This document shows positions 4,072-59,463 of a stretch of DNA of 64,000 nt, piece after piece (the first letter of the stretch is position 1; each line of letters opens with the position of its first letter). The notes under the pieces were generated by a model. That model was given only the letters and a program-made list of their open reading frames with translations, was not told the origin of the DNA and did not search any database. Source of the stretch: an uncultured Hormoscilla sp. (GTDB taxonomy: Bacteria; Cyanobacteriota; Cyanobacteriia; Cyanobacteriales; Desertifilaceae); contig OZ001293.3 of assembly GCA_963921275.4 (NCBI GenBank), forward strand, positions 1,536,001 to 1,600,000, in the 5' to 3' direction. A program made the translations under genes and the position numbers.

Positions 4072-4258
4072 GTGCGAATGGTGAATTGCGAATGGTGATG
4101 CTATTTGTTGGGCGATCGGGTATAGTGGGAGATGAGACGATCGCGACCTACCGATCGCCGGTCTGCGCTTCATGTAGCAGAAAATACATGGCTCCATAAG
4201 TAAGGAAGAGAGAGAAGATGGCTCTGGAAAATTTTCTGGCAAAAATGTAGAGTTTGAC

Positions 4259-6146
4259 GTGCGATTCGTTCTAGCCTAAGGTGGTCAAACACGGAACGCT
4301 AGTCTAGGAAACTAGAAACTCTAGTACTCATGGGGGTTAGATTCCCGTGCGATGAGTTCCAGCCTAACGTAGTCATATACGGAACGCTGGCCTAGGAAAC
4401 TAGGAACTCTGGTAATCATGGGGGTTTAATTCCCCCTCCCCAGGTACAGGGGTAACCGCGTGAGGTGCTGCGAAGTAACATCATCGTGGTGCCAAGCGAG
4501 GACTCAAATGTAGGATAACTGGCAGCCCAAGCCGGTGACTCTGCTAGGAAAGATGTCCATGGCTAGAACAAGCGAACCTATGTAAACCTCGTTAAACCCA
4601 ACCAGCGAAATAAGGCTTAATGCGCTGGAACAAAAGTTAATGCAGTTAGTGTTAATTAGGGAATTGGCTAACATTGTACCCAAATAACTGCCGGGGAAAA
4701 GTAGGGGCCTAAAGGCATCGTGAAATGATACCAGGGAACGAAGTAACCTCAGCGAGAGGAACGAAGTAACCCCCGTGGTGCTGTCCTCATTTGGACAAGT
4801 CAGATGTGCGTCCGCGTAGCGTGCGCGCAGCGCATAGCGCATGCCCATGAGGGGAGAGATGGCCCGAGAAGCTAATGCCTAGGCGGTGTCTGGAGCATGC
4901 CTTGGTGTCTGGAGCACACCGAGTCCTTCAGGACAAGAGTGTGCGGAAGACGCCAAAGTCCTTCAGGACAAGAGCATGCGGAAGACGCCGGTAATGCCTA
5001 TGGATACGCAGACGCGGGTCGGTGATACTAGTAAACTATTGGTACAAGTAGCTCTAAAATGTCATAAGCCCATTTACAGCGTTAGCGAAAGCGAGTTGAG
5101 GATTGAGGAATATTTAACTGGTAAAACGGAGTGTTAAATGGTGATACTAAAGGTTATCCGGCAGATCCACTCACCAACCAGGAAAGGGGCGGACGTGCAA
5201 GTAGTAAGGGACAATGGGAGTAATCCCTAGTAATCCTACCCGTGAAAGGGGCCTAGTACCCAGTAGCCGTGTGCGGTGAAAGTCGCATGCACGGTTCCGA
5301 AAGGGAGGGTTGTCCCGCGAGGGACAGCTCGACCCCGACTTCTCCCCAGGCGCGGGGGTAACACCGGTTGGAGGTGCTGCGGAGTAACATCGCCGTGGTG
5401 CTAAGCGAGGACTTAAATGTAGGATAGCTGATAGCCTAAATCGGCGACGCCGCGCTTGTTAGATGTCCAAGGTCAGAATAAGCGAATTCATGTAAACCTC
5501 GTTACTACGAACCAGCTCTAAGGCTTAATGCGCTGGCCCAAAAGGGTGAAGTAGTTAGTATTGGTTATGTCAACTGACCAATATCGTGCTCAAAGAACTA
5601 CCGGGGTAGAGTGAAGACCTAAAGACAGCATGAAATGATACTAGGGAACGAAGTAACCTCTCATGAGCTGTCCTCATATGGACAAGTTAGATGTAAAGCG
5701 GAAGCTATGAGGGGAGAGATGGCCCAAGAAGCAAAAGCCTGGGGTAATTCCTATGGATATGCTGACGTGGGTCGGTGATAGATAGAATCTTTGGGTGAAA
5801 GTAGCCTTAATGTTTTAGATCAGGAGAAATCCTAGATAATTAATGTTGGACTAAAGACCTGACCGGGTAAAACTTGGAGAACCTAGTAAATTAGGTAAAT
5901 GTTAGTAAAGAGCGGTTAATATGGGTTGGTACTGTTATCCCCCGCGAACCTTCCGGAGTTAGGCATATATGTAGTCTGAGACTAACCATAAGGGGTGAAA
6001 TTGCATGAAGAAAGGGACAAAGGGAGTAATCCTGAGTAATTCTACCTAGGACAAGGGCTATCTACCCAGTAGCCGTGTGCGGTGAAAGTCGCATGCACGG
6101 TTCCGAAAGGGAGGGTTGGGAGGCGACTCCTAGCTCGACCCCGACT
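4259..6146 (+). mobile_element. ORF-less group II intron (outer member of twintron; 894 nt without the inner intron)
   Basis: Starts GTGCG; D5 AGCCGTGTGCGGTGAAAGTCGCATGCACGGTT near 6071; D6 ends ACCCCGACT; EBS1 GTCAA (5569-5573) pairs with exon TTGAC. Confidence 0.93.
4347..5340 (+). mobile_element. ORF-less group II intron (inner member of twintron; 994 nt)
   Basis: Second GTGCG at 4347; own D5/D6 at about 5265-5340; EBS1 GGGAAT (4659-4664) complements upstream ATTCCC; removal restores ATTCCC|TCTCCCCAGG as in the 48-kb intron. Confidence 0.93.
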
Positions 6147-7303: not shown

Positions 7304-7765
7304 ATGCTGGACAATTTTATCGCCAAAAATATAGATTTTGACCCGGCGATCGTGGTCAAAGATAAAGACGATCGTCCCATGATGTTTGTCGATGTCAGAT
7401 CTTACCGGACATTTAGCTCTGAAGACTTGACAATCCATCACCTGGAAGATTATCAACAGGTGCTTTTTCTGATGTTTGTCAATCTCAAACAAATCAGAAA
7501 ACAAATCAGAATATATCGGTCTGGTAATTATCAGCCAATAACGATCTTAAAAATAGAAGATATTTTGTCATTTTATGCTTCTAATTATCAAGAATACGAA
7601 GTAATTTTTCAGCATTATTTGGTGAGCTTAGTAGATAGTTGGTTAAGTGACATATCTTATGATTGGAAAAGCCAAAATCATCATTTTGAAACGCAGATTA
7701 ATGAAGTCGGTTTAATTTCTCTGCTAGAAAAAGGTTTTGTTGAGAGAATATGGGAGTGGGATTAA
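7304..7765 (+). CDS. Hypothetical protein, intron-free paralog of the twintron host
   Basis: 153-aa ORF aligning with the spliced 4218-6557 product. Confidence 0.75.
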   Translation: MLDNFIAKNIDFDPAIVVKDKDDRPMMFVDVRSYRTFSSEDLTIHHLEDYQQVLFLMFVNLKQIRKQIRIYRSGNYQPITILKIEDILSFYASNYQEYEVIFQHYLVSLVDSWLSDISYDWKSQNHHFETQINEVGLISLLEKGFVERIWEWD

Positions 7766-19489: not shown

Positions 19490-20432
19490 GTGCGAATCGT
19501 TTTGGCGTAAGTCTGAAATATGGCGATCGCCGGGCTGGTTAATACCAGCAACTCTGGTCATCATGGGGGTTCAATTCCCCTTCCCCCAGGTACGGGAGTG
19601 ACCGCGTGAGGTGCTGCGGAGTAACATTACCGTGGTGCCTCCCGAGGACAAATGTAGGATAAGGTCTCAGCCCAGAGACCGACGCCGCATGGCTGCGCCA
19701 CGCTGCGCGATCGGAAAGAGGCTCATGGTTAGAGCAAGCGAATCCCTGTAAGCATCGTCATCTTAAACAAGCGAAAAGAGGCTGACACGCTTGGTGCAAA
19801 ATGCGCACGCAGTCCGCGTATCAGTGGTTGCACGTCACTGATATCGTACCCGAAATGACTGCCGGTGTATAGGGGAGACCTAAAAGCCTCGTGAAATGAT
19901 ACCAGGGAACGTTCCGGACAAGAGCGGTGCTGTCCAGATGGACAAGTCAGATGTGCGTCCGCGTAGCGTGCGCGCAGCGCCTAGCGCATGCCCGCGTGGG
20001 GAGGGAGGTCCTAAGAAGCTAATGCCCGGGGTAATGCCTGTGGATATGCAGACGTAGGACGGATATGGTAAAAAGCTCTAGGAGATAGTAGCCCTCTAAA
20101 CGTGCTTAACCAGTGGCAACACTAGGTAGTAATGATGGACTGAAATCCTAACCGGGTAAAAAATTTAGAGGCCCCATACGGGCACCTGTTAGTAAAGAAC
20201 GGTCATAGTGGTTTTCTAGTTCTCCCCCGTAAACCTTCCGGAGTTAGGTACTCAACTAGTTCATGACTGACCATAAAGGGGCTATATTTCATAGGGCAAG
20301 GGACAACGGGAGTAATCCCTAGTAATCCTACCCGTGACAAGGGTTTACCAACCAGTAGCCGTGTGCGGTGAAAGTCGCTCTTCAGGTTCCGAATGGGAGG
20401 ATTGTCCCGCGAGGGACAGCTCGACCCCGACC
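19490..20432 (+). mobile_element. ORF-less group II intron (943 nt), D5 partly degenerate
   Basis: GTGCG start; D5 AGCCGTGTGCGGTGAAAGTCGCTCTTCAGGTT; ends ACCCCGACC; EBS1 TGCACG versus exon CGGGCA (5/6). Confidence 0.9.
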
Positions 20433-48378: not shown

Positions 48379-49243
<865 letters not shown>

Positions 49244-51619: not shown

Positions 51620-53795
51620 GTTGGTGTCTTTAGTTTTTCGCCACCTTTGAGCGGTTGTGTAAGGCATGATCTCGTTGGACGACAAGGAAGAATAACGTCA
51701 GATAGCTGTGCTCATTCGGGAAAGCTCCTATTTCATCAGACTTCCTGGGAAACTTTCCAAGCGTTCGAGTAAGTTAGAGGTTCTCATCCTACAATGTAAC
51801 TCAGGCGCCAATTGGTAGAAAGTCAAGGTCAACTCAAGAGCTCTCTGGAACCTTTGCACTGCCTTATATTCCAGAACTTCCCACTTCAGGAAAAACGCTG
51901 CCAAGCGCTGTTGTGCTTCCTGTGAGCGAGGGCGCAGCGTAAAGAGCATAAGCATCATTTTGAAGAGGATAACGACGCTGTTGTTTGGCTTGGGAGTGAG
52001 TTAGCTGTTGTCCCATCTCATCATGTTCGGGGAGTTGTTGATAGCTCAGATCGTCTTGGAGCCGTCCCACAAGGTGGGTGATGCATCGCTGTTGCTTGGC
52101 CTTGGGCAGATGTTTGGTCATGGCAGCAGGCAAACCTAAAGTCCCATCACTCACAACTACTTCAACAATTTCTGCTTGCAGACCCCATGCCATTAAGTTT
52201 TATATGAAGTTTTCCCAGGCCAGGATGTCAAGACAGTTGGGCAATTTCGTAATGTATAAGTTGGTAGCTGCCATCTGGCCAGACAGCCATCGCCGCCAAA
52301 ATTACACGCTCTTGAGCTTGCCCCATCTGGCGGAGATGTCCTGCAGGGTCTACTTTGGATGGGGTCGAGCCGGGAATCGCTTCCCGACCCTCCCTTGAGG
52401 AACCGGACTTGCGATTTTCACCGCATCCGGCTACTGGGTACTAGGCCCTTTTCATAGGTAGACTTAATAGGAATTACTTCCGTTAGCCCTTGCCGCCTGT
52501 CTTTTCTTCCCTTTCCTGGTTTAGCGAGTGGTTGTTCTGATAACCGTTAGTATCACCATTTTCAAGTCAGTTTTACCAGTTATCCATACCTTATCCTCCA
52601 CTTGCGTTTCGGATTAGTTCCGTGGCTTTTTAGGATTACTCATTCCAGCAGCTTCCTAGTATCACCGACCCACGTCAGCGCTGGCTACCCAGCATCATCT
52701 ACATTACTGTAGATGTTATCCCAGGAATTACCCCGGGCATTCGCTTCTTGGGCCATCCCTCCCCCCGTGGCTTGCGCTTAACATCTAACTTGTCCTGATG
52801 GACAGCACACGAGAGGTTACTTCGTTCCCTAACAACATTTCGCGATACCTTTAGGTCCACACTATACCCCGGGAGCTATTTGAGTACTATATTAGCCAGA
52901 GTCTAAAACTAATACTAGCTACCATTTCCTTTTTAGGCCAGCGCATATAGCCTTATTTCGCTGGTTCCTTATAACGAGGCTTGCACATGTTTGCCTGCTC
53001 TAACCTTGGATATCTTTCCTAGCGGCGTCACCGGCTTAGGCTGCCAGTTATCCTACATTTGAGTCCTCGCTTAGCACCACGATGATGTCGCTTCGTAGCA
53101 CCGAGGACCGGTGTCACCCCCGTACCTGGGGGGAGGGGAATTTAACCCCCATGCGGTCAGAGTTCCCGGCTAATGAAACCGGGCTAGCGTTCCGTGTTTG
53201 ACCACGTTAGGCTAGAACGAATCGCACAAACTCTTCAAGGGTATATTGGATGTCCACCCAGACCCCATCTACAATCAAGATGGGGGGCGTCTTCTCAATC
53301 ACCGATTGACGATGTTTATCCATTTGCTGTTGAGCTTGTAAAGTAATAGGATTGATGGCACTCACAGATAGGACACTGCCCAGAAGAGGATAAAGTGCCT
53401 CTTGCAAGTCCCTGAAGGATAAACCCATCACATACAGACATAACCCCAAGTGAGCGAGATTCTACCTAGTAACCACAGCTTATGTGCGAGCATCACAAAT
53501 TTATTAAATTGACGCCGCAACTTTTTTCAATCGAGGACATTTAGGCATTCTGAGAACAACATTTTCACTCCTAGGGCGAGAAACCGTGATTCTTTCGTAG
53601 AAAGTTGCACCGAAGCGTTAAATTGATATACTGCTGTGGGAGAGCCCTCACTGCAGGCTATCGGGCCAAATCGCCAGAACCATTGAACCATAAGGGTTGA
53701 GCACCAGAATAGCCATTTTTCGATGTGTAATTTAAATGCGCGACAGCTTACTCCCATTAACAAAGGTAAGGTGGCGAAGAATTCCAGACACCAAT
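51620..53795 (-). mobile_element. IS256-like element (~1.3 kb without its intron), degraded
   Basis: 8-bp duplication GATTATTC (51612-51619, 53796-53803); imperfect IRs TTGGTGTCT...TTCGCCACCTT; LIVDG, VVSDG and QRCITH motifs. Confidence 0.85.
52357..53227 (-). mobile_element. ORF-less group II intron (871 nt) inside the IS256-like transposase gene
   Basis: GTGCG start; D5 AGCCGGATGCGGTGAAAATCGCAAGTCCGGTT; ends ACCCCATCC; EBS1 AGACTC pairs GAGTTT; splicing gives YTLEEF|KVDPAGH in frame. Confidence 0.92.
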
Positions 53796-55062
53796 GATTA
53801 TTCGATCGAATAAAGTCAGTCCAAACAGCCGGAGATGGGGCAAAATTGGCGGAAATCCAGGAGGAGTTCGAGCGGGTGCGATCGCAGGCATCAAGTTACG
53901 TAAAGCAAAATGAATTCGGTCAAATTATCGAGCGGGCAGGGGGAGTAGGACTGAATGCGACGACTTCGGCAGATGCCACCCGCTATTTCTTCAGCTTACC
54001 ATCCAATAAGCTAGAACTGTGGAGGTCTCTGGAGTCGGAAAGGTTTGGCGATCCGGTGTTTCGGGAGTTTTTTGCCGAGAAAGAGGTGATCCTGGAAGAA
54101 AGACGCCTGCGCACGGATAACTCTCCTATGGGTAAGATGATAGAAGCATTTCAAGATACTGCTTTCCAAGAACATCCCTATGGCCGTCCCATAATTGGTT
54201 ATGAACAAGATATCCGCAACCTGACGCGGCAAGATGTAGAAGAATTCTTTGCAACTTATTACATGCCTGGCAACATGACAGTGGCAATCGTGGGAGATGT
54301 GGATCTGGCAGAAGTGAAGCGGTTAGCGGAAATTTACTTTGGGAGCTATCAAGATAAACAGTTACCAAAAGATAAAATCCCAGAGTAACCGCCGCAAACA
54401 AAAACGAAGGAAGTGACGGTAGAGTTTCCTTCTCAACCCTGGTATTTGGAAGGGTATCATCGCCCAGCCATGAAGCATCCAGATAATGTAGTTTATGAAA
54501 TGATTGGCAGCATTCTCAGTGACGGTCGCACATCACGGCTATATAAGTCTCTGGTAGAAAAGCAGCAAGTAGCCCTGGGAGCAGCAGGTGAGAGTGGTTT
54601 CCCTGGGAATAAGTATCCTAATTTGATGCTGTTCTATGCCGTGACTGCACCCGGTCGTACTGTAGAAGAGGTAGCGGCAGCTTTACAGACAGAAATTGCC
54701 CGCCTGAAAACGGAACCGGTTTCCCAAACAGAATTAGACCGGGTGAAAACTCAAGCAAGGGCAGGTCTGTTGCGGGCGATCGGGTCTAACGCCGGTCTAG
54801 CTAGTTTGTTAGTAGAGTACGAAGCGAAAACGGGTTCTTGGCGGAACCTGTTCCGAGAAATAGATATGATTGAAAAGGTAACGGCAGCAGATATCCAGCG
54901 AGTCGCCCAGGCTACCTTTACCCAGAAAACCGGACAGTGGGGCGTCTGTTACCAAAATCTTAAGCAATTCTCTCATGCAAAATTCGTAGGTTGGGTTTCG
55001 TGCCTCAACCCAACCCCGCCGACGTTGGGTTTCTTCCCGTTATCAATTTTAACCGACTCAAG

Positions 55063-55917: not shown

Positions 55918-55947
55918 AGGATTTTACACTTATTTAGGTGATGCTGT

Positions 55948-56835
55948 TTATTGAGAGTATTGCTGGACTTCTTCAATGGTCAAGCTCAGGGTTTGGGCGA
56001 CCTGCTCGGAGCTTAAGCCAAGAGCTAATAATTTGGGAATTGCTGCTCTTTGAGCCTGTTCAGCCCGAAATGCCCGCTCCTGTTGTTGCTCCGCTCGCTC
56101 CTGTTGTTGCTCCGCACGCTCTCGCTCACGGTCCGCACGCTCTCGTTCGCGTTCCGCCCGCTCTTCTCCCAGTAGTAATAGATTTCCCCGCTCGTCCCAC
56201 CACCGCATCCACGGCTGATTTTGGTTTTGATAAAAACCCCGCCAGACTCCTAGTTCTACTCCCAAGGGCGGTATGGGATAATGTCCCCGTTCATTGGGTC
56301 TCATCAGCTGGTAAGATCCCCCCTGCAACTCATAGAATTCTAAAGCACCGCTATTGACAAAATAGATGCCATAATAGGGAATCTTCATGACTTGCTCGTA
56401 AACCCAGAATTTTCCCGCCTTTATTAGATTACCTTCAGCATCGCGAGATATAGGTGTATTGTTACGTTCGGGAGAACCATTACCACTGGCAAACTCTAAG
56501 ACAATCTGCGGTATGGTCGGTTCCTTCCATAACACGTAGGAACGGCGAATCTGGGAGTCAATCATGGGGGGCACCCCTGGTACATAGAACCAGTCCGGTG
56601 CTACTGCTCCTGCTTCTGGCGGGTCTGTTCGAGTCCAGTAGATACCGCAGTCTTGCCCGATCGCATATTGTCCGTCCGGGTGCAGTTGTCGTAAAACTGG
56701 TCCTAGAGAATCCGTCAGGATCAGGCTTTGGGGATGTTCTTGAAAGTTCTTCACAAAAGTACCATCCGACTCTGGTAGCTGGGTATGATCCGGTAAAATC
56801 GGAGTCTTTACTGTTTTTGCTGCTGTGGTGACCAT
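55948..56835 (-). CDS. Uma2 family endonuclease, array copy 2
   Basis: Tandem paralog. Confidence 0.88.
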   Translation of the reverse strand: MVTTAAKTVKTPILPDHTQLPESDGTFVKNFQEHPQSLILTDSLGPVLRQLHPDGQYAIGQDCGIYWTRTDPPEAGAVAPDWFYVPGVPPMIDSQIRRSYVLWKEPTIPQIVLEFASGNGSPERNNTPISRDAEGNLIKAGKFWVYEQVMKIPYYGIYFVNSGALEFYELQGGSYQLMRPNERGHYPIPPLGVELGVWRGFYQNQNQPWMRWWDERGNLLLLGEERAERERERADRERERAEQQQERAEQQQERAFRAEQAQRAAIPKLLALGLSSEQVAQTLSLTIEEVQQYSQ

Positions 56836-56865
56836 AGGATTTTACACTTATTTAGGTGATGCTGT

Positions 56866-57690
56866 TTATTGAGAGTATTGCTGGACTTCTTCAATGGTCA
56901 AGCTCAGGGTTTGGGCTACCTGTTCGGCGGTTAAGCCAAGAGCTAATAATCTGGGAACTGCTGCTCTTTGAGCCTGTTCAGCCCTTTCAGCACGCTCTCG
57001 TTCGCGTTCGGCTCGTTCTTCTCCCAGTAGTAATAGATTTCCCTGGGAGTCCCACCACCGCATCCACGGCTGATTTTGGTTTTGATACAAACCCCGCCAT
57101 ACTCCTAGTTCTACTCCCAAGGGCGGTATGGGATAATGTCCCCGTTCATTAGGTCTGTGAAGCTGGTAAGACCCGGACTGCAACTCATAGAATTCTAAAG
57201 CACCGCTATTGACAAAATAGATGCCATAATAGGGAATCTTGATGACTTGCTCGTAAACCCAGAATTTTCCCGCCTTAATTAGATTACCTTCAGCATCGCG
57301 AGATATAGCGGTATTGTTACGTTCAGCGGCACCATTACCACTGGCAAACTCTAAGACAATCTGCGGTATGGTCGGTTCCTTCCATAACACGTAGGAACGG
57401 CGAATCTGGGAGTCAATCAAGGGGGGCACCCCTGGTACATAGAACCAGTCCGGTGCTACTGCTCCTGCTTCTGGCGGGTCTGTTCGAGTCCAGTAGATAC
57501 CGCAGTCTTGCCCGATCGCATATTGTCCGTCGGGGTGAAGTTGTCGTAATACTGGTCCAATTGAATCTGTGAGAATCAGGCTTTGGGGATGTTCTTGAAA
57601 ATTCTTCACAAATGTGCCATCCGACTCTGGTAGCTGGGTGTGGTCTGGTAAAATCGGAGTCTTTACTATTTTTTCTGCTGTGGTGACCAT
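56866..57690 (-). CDS. Uma2 family endonuclease, array copy 3
   Basis: Tandem paralog. Confidence 0.88.
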   Translation of the reverse strand: MVTTAEKIVKTPILPDHTQLPESDGTFVKNFQEHPQSLILTDSIGPVLRQLHPDGQYAIGQDCGIYWTRTDPPEAGAVAPDWFYVPGVPPLIDSQIRRSYVLWKEPTIPQIVLEFASGNGAAERNNTAISRDAEGNLIKAGKFWVYEQVIKIPYYGIYFVNSGALEFYELQSGSYQLHRPNERGHYPIPPLGVELGVWRGLYQNQNQPWMRWWDSQGNLLLLGEERAERERERAERAEQAQRAAVPRLLALGLTAEQVAQTLSLTIEEVQQYSQ

Positions 57691-57720
57691 AGGATTTTAC
57701 ACTTATTTAGGTGATGCTGT

Positions 57721-58608
57721 TTATTGAGAGTATTGCTGGACTTCTTCAATGGTCAAGCTCAGGGTTTGGGCGACCTGCTCGGAGCTTAAGCCAAGAGCTA
57801 ATAATTTGGGAATTGCTGCTCTTTGAGCCTGTTCAGCCCGAAATGCCCGCTCCTGTTGTTGCTCCGCTCGCTCCTGTTGTTGCTCCGCACGCTCTCGCTC
57901 ACGGTCCGCACGCTCTCGTTCGCGTTCCGCCCGCTCTTCTCCCAGTAGTAATAGATTTCCCCGCTCGTCCCACCACCGCATCCACGGCTGATTTTGGTTT
58001 TGATAAAAACCCCGCCAGACTCCTAGTTCTACTCCCAAGGGCGGTATGGGATAATGTCCCCGTTCATTGGGTCTCATCAGCTGGTAAGATCCCCCCTGCA
58101 ACTCATAGAATTCTAAAGCACCGCTATTGACAAAATAGATGCCATAATAGGGAATCTTCATGACTTGCTCGTAAACCCAGAATTTTCCCGCCTTTATTAG
58201 ATTACCTTCAGCATCGCGAGATATAGGTGTATTGTTACGTTCGGGAGAACCATTACCACTGGCAAACTCTAAGACAATCTGCGGTATGGTCGGTTCCTTC
58301 CATAACACGTAGGAACGGCGAATCTGGGAGTCAATCATGGGGGGCACCCCTGGTACATAGAACCAGTCCGGTGCTACTGCTCCTGCTTCTGGCGGGTCTG
58401 TTCGAGTCCAGTAGATACCGCAGTCTTGCCCGATCGCATATTGTCCGTCCGGGTGCAGTTGTCGTAAAACTGGTCCTAGAGAATCCGTCAGGATCAGGCT
58501 TTGGGGATGTTCTTGAAAGTTCTTCACAAAAGTACCATCCGACTCTGGTAGCTGGGTATGATCCGGTAAAATCGGAGTCTTTACTGTTTTTGCTGCTGTG
58601 GTGACCAT
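57721..58608 (-). CDS. Uma2 family endonuclease, array copy 4
   Basis: Protein identical to copy 2; offset 1773 bp. Confidence 0.85.
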   Translation of the reverse strand: MVTTAAKTVKTPILPDHTQLPESDGTFVKNFQEHPQSLILTDSLGPVLRQLHPDGQYAIGQDCGIYWTRTDPPEAGAVAPDWFYVPGVPPMIDSQIRRSYVLWKEPTIPQIVLEFASGNGSPERNNTPISRDAEGNLIKAGKFWVYEQVMKIPYYGIYFVNSGALEFYELQGGSYQLMRPNERGHYPIPPLGVELGVWRGFYQNQNQPWMRWWDERGNLLLLGEERAERERERADRERERAEQQQERAEQQQERAFRAEQAQRAAIPKLLALGLSSEQVAQTLSLTIEEVQQYSQ

Positions 58609-58638
58609 AGGATTTTACACTTATTTAGGTGATGCTGT

Positions 58639-59463
58639 TTATTGAGAGTATTGCTGGACTTCTTCAATGGTCAAGCTCAGGGTTTGGGCTACCTGTTCGG
58701 CGGTTAAGCCAAGAGCTAATAATCTGGGAACTGCTGCTCTTTGAGCCTGTTCAGCCCTTTCAGCACGCTCTCGTTCGCGTTCGGCTCGTTCTTCTCCCAG
58801 TAGTAATAGATTTCCCTGGGAGTCCCACCACCGCATCCACGGCTGATTTTGGTTTTGATACAAACCCCGCCATACTCCTAGTTCTACTCCCAAGGGCGGT
58901 ATGGGATAATGTCCCCGTTCATTAGGTCTGTGAAGCTGGTAAGACCCGGACTGCAACTCATAGAATTCTAAAGCACCGCTATTGACAAAATAGATGCCAT
59001 AATAGGGAATCTTGATGACTTGCTCGTAAACCCAGAATTTTCCCGCCTTAATTAGATTACCTTCAGCATCGCGAGATATAGCGGTATTGTTACGTTCAGC
59101 GGCACCATTACCACTGGCAAACTCTAAGACAATCTGCGGTATGGTCGGTTCCTTCCATAACACGTAGGAACGGCGAATCTGGGAGTCAATCAAGGGGGGC
59201 ACCCCTGGTACATAGAACCAGTCCGGTGCTACTGCTCCTGCTTCTGGCGGGTCTGTTCGAGTCCAGTAGATACCGCAGTCTTGCCCGATCGCATATTGTC
59301 CATCCGGGTGCAGTTGTCGTAAAACTGGTCCTAGAGAATCCGTCAGGATCAGGCTTTGGGGATGTTCTTGAAAGTTCTTCACAAAAGTACCATCCGATTC
59401 TGGTAGCAGGGTGTGATCTGGTAAAATCGGAGTCTTTACTATTTTTTCTGCTGTGGTGACCAT
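58639..59463 (-). CDS. Uma2 family endonuclease, array copy 5
   Basis: Differs from copy 3 by 2 aa. Confidence 0.85.
   Translation of the reverse strand: MVTTAEKIVKTPILPDHTLLPESDGTFVKNFQEHPQSLILTDSLGPVLRQLHPDGQYAIGQDCGIYWTRTDPPEAGAVAPDWFYVPGVPPLIDSQIRRSYVLWKEPTIPQIVLEFASGNGAAERNNTAISRDAEGNLIKAGKFWVYEQVIKIPYYGIYFVNSGALEFYELQSGSYQLHRPNERGHYPIPPLGVELGVWRGLYQNQNQPWMRWWDSQGNLLLLGEERAERERERAERAEQAQRAAVPRLLALGLTAEQVAQTLSLTIEEVQQYSQ

Follow-up and report, generated by a model that had tools for sequence, protein, structure and literature searches.

Five group IIB introns without an open reading frame (ORF), two of them nested as a twintron, were found in a 64,000-nt stretch of an uncultured Hormoscilla sp. 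genome (assembly GCA_963921275.4, contig OZ001293.3, positions 1,536,001 to 1,600,000), which is referred to as the window. The outer and inner members of the twintron are designated A and B and the remaining copies I3, I4 and I5 (Table 1), and all are probably of the chloroplast-like (CL) type, belonging to a family that is spread through filamentous cyanobacteria. As judged from the sequence and its relatives, these introns very probably end in C plus a pyrimidine (CY), with the 3' splice site predicted to be set by its distance from domain VI (D6) together with two single base pairs, gamma-gamma' and the pair between exon-binding site 3 (EBS3) and intron-binding site 3 (IBS3). The final dinucleotides of B, A, I3, I4 and I5 were CU, CU, CC, CU and CC, and the canonical AY (A plus a pyrimidine) was present in none of the five.

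The window introns were 865-994 nt in length and began GTGCGA, and the GUGYG type of 5' boundary was present as GTGCG in these five and in all 21 copies of the alignment described below. The 5' motif GUGCGAUUC, which is used as a CL2 / IIB2 motif in PMC4649490, was present in A, I4 and I5, with GUGCGAUGA in B and GUGCGAAUC in I3. A scan of the 12 large ORFs of the window gave no RVT (reverse transcriptase, RT) domain.

Splice boundaries in comparison with uninterrupted relatives

The boundaries lie where a preliminary description of the window had put them, with coordinates and letters the same for the 3' ends of B, A, I3, I4 and I5, and four independent lines agree. On a Kovacikia minuta plasmid the transposase that hosts I5 has an intron-free homologue with the sequence ..IQYTREAF KLDRAGHLRQ.. 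(DNA GCGTTT AAGCTAGACC), while the window gene reads ..IQYTLEEF|KVDPAGHLRQ.. across the I5 junction (DNA GAGTTT|AAAGTAGACC) with no residue gained or lost; the frame said to be restored at TTT|AAA thus matches the uninterrupted GCGTTT AAGCTA. The match GAC|CCG claimed for the twintron was found in the DNA of a paralogue at 7304-7765, which has TTTGACCCGGCG at the point that corresponds to TTTGAC|CCGGAT in the host of A. At the junction of I3 in a filamentous-hemagglutinin-like (FHA) gene, ten residues separate VELRGI from VRESS, the same count as in each of three close orthologues (75-80% identical over the query region), in agreement with the frame restoration proposed there. These ten residues themselves differ, so that the length of the junction is supported and not its sequence. 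Intron A with B (4347-5340) removed aligned to I4 across the insertion point without a gap.

A 3' boundary taken from such junctions is valid only if the 5' boundary lies directly before GUGCG, and exon-binding site 1 (EBS1) was therefore located. EBS1 was the loop of a hairpin approximately 35 nt upstream of the proposed EBS3 and formed at least five of six pairs with the last six exon bases (IBS1) in all 21 full-length members, with the best register identical in 21/21 when seven registers were tried. The EBS1 of B, GGGAAT (4659-4664), paired at all six positions with the flanking ATTCCC. For the EBS2-IBS2 pairing with the 5' exon, no consistent EBS2 column was found.

Covariation of the last intron base and the first exon base

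A scan of genome contigs with a domain V (D5) pattern gave at least 49 loci, all cyanobacterial, from Hormoscilla, Nostoc, Coleofasciculus, Microcoleus and other genera. An alignment for covariation was made of 21 full-length ORF-less copies, sixteen from the listed loci and the five window copies, and nine further close copies, whose 5' end lay outside the contig or could not be located at a distance of 600-1100 nt, were omitted. Gamma was taken as the R of GGGAG[R]GA in the linker that joins domain II to domain III (J2/3) and gamma' as the last intron base, with EBS3 as the third base after CCGGNN and IBS3 as exon base +1.

Gamma and gamma' formed a Watson-Crick pair in 21/21 introns at the proposed boundary (16 G:C and 5 A:U). 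Displacing the boundary by -1 reduced this to 16/21, with all five A cases failing, and the other shifts gave 0-5. The full count was reached in 6/200,000 permutations, a blind scan of all alignment columns returned the J2/3 column as the top partner of the last base, and the pair changed at least three times on a midpoint-rooted FastTree phylogeny whose support values were not inspected. The five-of-five gamma-gamma' agreement noted earlier for the window, where J2/3 is GGGAG[A]GA in the three T-ending copies (4857, 5717 and 48762) and GGGAG[G]GA in the two C-ending copies (20004 and 52758), was confirmed and extends to the whole alignment.

The complementarity of EBS3 to the first exon base in the five window copies likewise held and extends to 18 Watson-Crick pairs of four types and two G:U pairs among the 21 introns, with one mismatch. 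Shifts of -3 to +3 gave 4-8 Watson-Crick pairs of 21, and a count of 18 was reached in 0/200,000 permutations. Among the ORF-containing relatives EBS3-IBS3 was Watson-Crick in 8/8 cases where EBS3 could be found, the anchor patterns having failed to locate it in five loci with sufficient upstream sequence (L026, L028, L037, L039 and L044). One of these relatives, L013, ends UACC|U with A as EBS3, which places its end after CC and not after AC. The position of EBS3, approximately 35 nt 3' of EBS1 and pairing with exon +1, is that of subgroup IIB, where a domain I internal loop provides the pairing base and not a delta base next to EBS1.

Tails of related introns and domain VI

The listed loci and the window together gave 56 distinct D5 copies, of which 53 had a readable D6 tail. 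Thirty were close relatives (the five window copies and 25 from the listed loci, mostly Hormoscilla), all of which except L046 appear ORF-less with lengths of 755-994 nt. Their tail was UCGACCCC followed by four bases, namely GACC in ten, AUCC, UACC and UAAC in four each, AGCC and GACU in three each, and UAAU and GGCU in one each, so that the next-to-last base was C in 25/30 and A in 5/30 (UAAC/UAAU). The ORF-containing exception L046, with RT, maturase and HNH domains (RVT_1, GIIM, HNH), had the long tail and ended UAAC, which puts a textbook AC exactly at the position proposed for the window introns. The second group of 23 introns was approximately 2.7 kb where complete, and the one member tested (L007) carried RVT_1 and RVT_N; here the tail was UCGACCC (UCGACUC in L038) followed by UACC in thirteen, UAAC in eight, and UAGC and UAUC in one each. 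Neither group varied in tail length, and every tail ended in a pyrimidine. Of the 53 tails, 38 had C as the next-to-last base and 13 had A (an AY end), while G and U occurred once each, which bears out the earlier proposal that the AY dinucleotide is unconstrained in this lineage.

Copies ending in CC have spread recently. One Hormoscilla genome contained four copies of 970-971 nt that were 99.9-100% identical at different sites and another contained three copies of 925 nt that were 100% identical, also at different sites; the identity stopped exactly at ..UACC or ..GACC, and EBS1 matched IBS1 at each site.

A consensus fold of D6 from 23 distinct sequences featured a ten-pair upper helix, a one-by-two internal loop leaving GA unpaired, and three invariant G:C pairs (GGG/CCC) at the base, followed by a 5-nt unpaired tail C-N-N-N-Y. 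Seven of the thirteen pairs were maintained through double compensatory changes. The bulged A lies in the GA bulge of this fold, and eight nucleotides follow the presumed branch A here as against seven in the ORF-containing sister group and six in the Rfam consensus. The usual spacing has been quoted as "7-8 nt" (PMC1865049), and, depending on whether the A itself is counted in that figure, the spacing of the window introns falls at the upper limit of the normal range or exceeds it by one base. The altered geometry between D6 and the 3' splice site put forward in the preliminary description was overstated, the change from the usual being one nucleotide at most.

The same description had placed the site one nucleotide beyond a canonical AY, and in this it was mistaken. 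The upstream AC is fortuitous and comes from GAC in some copies. In I5 an AU lies two bases upstream of the end, while in I4 an AY is altogether absent; AGCC, UACC and AUCC are the ends of other relatives, and 5/30 carry a true AY exactly at the proposed end. The splice site has not moved past an AY; rather, the tail is fixed and its next-to-last position may be occupied by C or, in rare cases, by G or U.

Rfam annotation of the ends

The Rfam D5-D6 model RF00029 (gathering score 40 bits) was passed by four of the five window copies at 44.4-48 bits, while I3 failed with 20 bits because of four non-standard pairs in its D5 lower helix. The ends given by the model were 5339 (B), 6145 (A), 48380 (I4) and 52359 (I5), which are 1, 1, 1 and 2 nt short, respectively. 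With C as the next-to-last base in place of the consensus A, the introns end in CY and consensus-based tools clip 1-2 nt. Boundaries called by AY or by Rfam would fall 1-2 nt early and frameshift every interrupted gene on paper, as would happen here to the FHA-like gene, the transposase and the twintron host. The sole match to the Rfam models of domains I to IV was a sub-threshold hit to RF01999 (22 bits vs 36).

Proposed recognition of the 3' splice site and alternatives

In the proposed mechanism, branching would occur at A 5332 of B and the equivalent positions of the other copies, and the 3' splice site lies eight nucleotides after this bulged A of D6. Two single pairs recognise the site: gamma' (C or U), at the end of the intron, pairs with the purine of J2/3 in GGGAG[R]GA, and the base that opens the exon pairs with EBS3, on the strand immediately 3' of the EBS1 hairpin. 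Sequence comparison shows that the 3' site is specified by D6 distance, gamma-gamma' and EBS3-IBS3, in the same way as in other IIB introns (PMC6224600). As an RT domain is lacking in all of the 12 large ORFs scanned, the copies probably splice with a maturase supplied in trans from elsewhere in the genome, and B would presumably have to be spliced out before A could fold domain I.

Several points weigh against this reading. EBS3 and IBS3 are mismatched (T:T) in L025 and form G:U in two others of the 21 introns, which come from a few genomes, and near-identical copies among them are non-independent for gamma-gamma'. Such copies do not inflate the EBS3 count, every insertion site being a separate one. 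At the base of D6 the GGG/CCC pairs are invariant, so that the exact register around the bulge is unproven by covariation; branch point and ligated exons are both predicted, and the sample is made up of the listed loci (at least 49). In addition the transposase contains stops, the host of A is frameshifted versus its paralogue, and the D5 of I3 is damaged. Because three host genes in the window look dead, present-day selection on the reading frame is doubtful.

If the introns ended at the canonical AY found by Rfam, which is AC or, in I5, AU, the extra one or two bases would belong to the 3' exon. RF00029 does align its terminal 'Au' to AC, GC or AU at the positions listed above, yet I4 has GC there and not AY, the transposase, FHA and host-of-A junctions become frameshifted vs uninterrupted homologues, and the pairings fall to 16/21 for gamma and 7/21 Watson-Crick for EBS3, leaving this explanation hardly credible. 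An equal-length intron with both splice sites one base to the left, starting one base before GUGCG and ending at AC, would keep the amino acid in the products of A and I5 (GAT for GAC and TTC for TTT). The homologue and paralogue DNA is nevertheless TTT and GAC, the EBS1-IBS1 register is fixed in 21/21 and ends at the base before GUGCG, I5 needs a 2-nt shift to reach AU that would change F to S vs the homologue, and gamma covariation fails at -1; the probability of such a shift is negligible.

It is a little less improbable, though still far from likely, that the copies are dead relics whose non-AY ends reflect decay and not a working feature. The broken D5 lower helix of I3, with its score of 20 against a threshold of 40 bits, the pseudogene state of several host genes and the lack of a reverse transcriptase in the 12 large ORFs scanned would fit such decay. 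However, CY ends are common to 25/30 close copies from several genomes and covary perfectly with J2/3, identical CC-ending copies occur at several sites with matching EBS1 and IBS1, the D6 helix is kept through compensatory changes, and four of the five window copies score above the Rfam threshold. An unlikely but weightier alternative is that recognition in the second splicing step has been remodelled, with the G1-A contact lost or replaced by G1:C, a longer flexible linker, and reliance on gamma-gamma' and EBS3-IBS3 only. The 5-nt unpaired tail and the next-to-last base counts (C 38, G 1 and U 1 of 53 tails) are consistent with remodelling, and lower fidelity might follow, as has been argued for the Sinorhizobium meliloti intron RmInt1, whose CC end goes with reduced second-step fidelity (PMC4238363). 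On the other side, a mutual-information scan of the 21 introns for partners of tail positions -2 to -5 gave none, the last base alone having a partner, in J2/3; AY-ending copies coexist in the family at the same spacing; and G1 is invariant. CY ends on an otherwise ordinary IIB recognition scheme appear the better reading.

For the next-to-last A of group II introns a contact with G1 during the second step of splicing is generally assumed, and this A has its parallel in the AG of nuclear introns. It is conceivable, and on balance we would doubt it, that a whole cyanobacterial lineage of chloroplast-like introns, ORF-containing parents and ORF-less offspring together, has lost both the next-to-last A and the G1 contact and places the site by D6 distance and the two single pairs alone. 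This would, if true, make it a second natural lineage besides RmInt1, independent of it and contradicting the published view of the RmInt1 end as unique, with many natural A/C/G/U variants with which to test the purpose of the G1 contact. With C in most copies, A, G or U in some and the pairs strictly kept, the family forms a natural mutational series for that contact. The point is incremental and brings no new mechanism.

Comparison with known introns

The nearest precedent for the end itself is RmInt1, a group IIB3 / class D intron that ends CC and not AY (PMC4238363; PMC3669008). Its pyrimidine next-to-last base has been mutagenised, with changes impairing the second step, and the non-Watson-Crick contact between the next-to-last base and G1 is attributed to Chanfreau and Jacquier 1993, as cited in PMC4238363. 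Like the window family, RmInt1 pairs gamma (G in J2/3) with gamma' (C) and has an EBS3 in a domain I internal loop that pairs with exon +1 (PMC4238363). In contrast, RmInt1 has its own protein, described as lacking the endonuclease domain (PMC4075523), while the window copies are ORF-less and L046, their ORF-containing relative, encodes RT, maturase and HNH domains. The HNH domain in L046 argues against an RmInt1-like class D intron, only the CC end being shared. The host phylum also differs, and here the feature extends across many ORF-less copies with AY-ending siblings.

The TeI3 introns of Thermosynechococcus elongatus (Mohr et al. 2010, PMC2882425) are similar in that cyanobacterial ORF-less derivatives of approximately 0.8-1 kb have proliferated and inserted into other introns and insertion sequence (IS) elements, with a maturase presumably from another copy. 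The inner intron of the T. elongatus twintrons is in domain IV at the ORF start, unlike B, which is in a domain I hairpin. A group II twintron in Trichodesmium erythraeum (Pfreundt and Hess 2015, PMC4649490) does have its inner intron in domain I and the 5' GUGCGAUUC, and its splicing was shown to be sequential; there both introns carry protein ORFs and the element exceeds 5.4 kb, whereas here both are ORF-less, total 1.9 kb and are known from sequence. In class B introns that carry a 3' extension (B.c.I4, 'domain VII') the 3' splice site likewise lies away from the AY at the end of domain VI (PMC4424553; PMC1865049), but there by 50-70 nt and through an added structured domain, while the present introns have no added domain and an offset of at most 1 nt. 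Full-text searches of the literature, as distinct from curated intron collections, gave no paper describing CY ends for cyanobacteria. The present family adds another example of known things, and its novelty may lie in the absence of the AY rule from an entire cyanobacterial clade and not from a single intron.

Table 1. Coordinates of the five introns, their predicted recognition elements and their 3' ends in the window
Feature	Position	Strand	Remarks
Outer intron A, 5' segment	4259..4346	+	domain I, initial 88 nt; GTGCGATTCG at its start
Inner intron B (994 nt, ORF-less)	4347..5340	+	within domain I hairpin of A; RF00029 47.9 bits on D5-D6
EBS3 of B (A)	4699	+	pairs with T 5341
gamma of B (A in GGGAGAGA, J2/3)	4857	+	pairs with U 5340
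End of B	5332..5340	+	predicted bulged branch A (5332) and 8-nt end, ACCCCGACT; U 5340 = gamma'; next base T
Outer intron A, 3' segment	5341..6146	+	EBS1 5569-5574, EBS3 G 5609, gamma A 5717
End of A	6138..6146	+	predicted branch A 6138, end 6146; ACCCCGACT; next base C; RF00029 48 bits
Intron I3 (943 nt)	19490..20432	+	host: FHA-like gene; EBS3 T 19870, gamma G 20004; D5 lower helix broken
End of I3	20424..20432	+	predicted branch A 20424; ACCCCGACC; next base A
Intron I4 (865 nt)	48379..49243	-	intergenic, starts 9 nt past stop of DUF3119 gene; EBS3 T 48875, gamma A 48762; RF00029 45.7 bits
End of I4	48387..48379	-	predicted branch A 48387; ACCCCGGCT, ends GGCU; next base A
Intron I5 (871 nt)	52357..53227	-	host: transposase of Mutator/IS256 type, decayed; RF00029 44.4 bits; EBS3 T 52864, gamma G 52758
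End of I5	52365..52357	-	predicted branch A 52365; ACCCCATCC, ends AUCC; next base A

The twintron, host genes and other observations

The two segments of A (4259-4346 and 5341-6146) aligned end to end with family members through a gap-free join, as is expected of a twintron, and the 5' segment was 84% identical to the start of B. At 4331-4353 the target of B has become a hairpin conserved in the very family to which B belongs, with EBS1 GGGAAT facing ATTCCC and EBS3 A facing T, and the same target string, AAATTCCCTCTCCCC, is present and unoccupied in I4. No second twintron at the same domain I site was found among the listed loci (at least 49), the window being the only case. Private insertions of B included a duplicated GGAACGAAGTAACC segment at approximately 4735-4775 and a block of approximately 110 nt (approximately 4880-4995) with two copies of GTCCTTCAGGACAAGAG..TGCGGAAGACGCC, while a GC-rich insert (GCGTCCGCGTAGCGTGCGCGCAGCGC..) in domain II was common to B and I3.

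The D5 3' strand of I3 (20376-20386) was odd, reading GUCGCUCUUCAGGUUC, which breaks four lower-helix pairs. The same GUCGCUCUUCAGGUUC was found in the minus-strand copy at Hormoscilla locus L047, which is otherwise only approximately 85% alike over a short stretch, and a D5 variant common to two genomes is not private decay.

A plasmid collection searched with the twintron gave D5-D6 matches only. An ORF-less relative on a Chondrocystis plasmid (L003, 1366-2194) apparently ends ACCCCUAAC and an ORF-containing copy in Leptolyngbya boryana (L004) apparently ends ACCCUAAC, both boundaries being unconfirmed. The L003 intron sits between two annotated IS66 transposase pieces on the opposite strand and is thus not spliceable from the transposase transcript.

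The twintron host gene (4218-4258) starts ATGGCTCTGGAAAATTTTCTGGCAAAAATG and its paralogue (7304-7342) reads MLDNFIAKNIDFD|PAIVVKD. In comparison with the intact paralogue (7304-7765), the reading frame of the host gene is off by one base, within a run of A, from that of its exon junction, and the gene looks like a pseudogene or carries a sequencing error. A PIN-domain gene (PF16289, 6558-7037) follows the host gene directly, overlapping its stop codon, with the paralogue of the host protein just downstream. No Pfam match was found for either the host protein or the paralogue, and the PIN gene and the host protein of unknown family may form a small toxin-antitoxin-like pair. The transposase gene hosting I5 (51700-52356 and 53228-54400, minus strand) matched PF00872 on its 5' exon and contained stops and frame changes on both sides of the intron.

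In the region 55938-59463, ORFs of equal length recur at an offset of 1773 nt, including ORFs of 295 aa (55948 and 57721) and 274 aa (56866 and 58639) and, on the other strand, ORFs of 139 aa and 125 aa at the same offset, which suggests a tandem duplication of approximately 1.8 kb.

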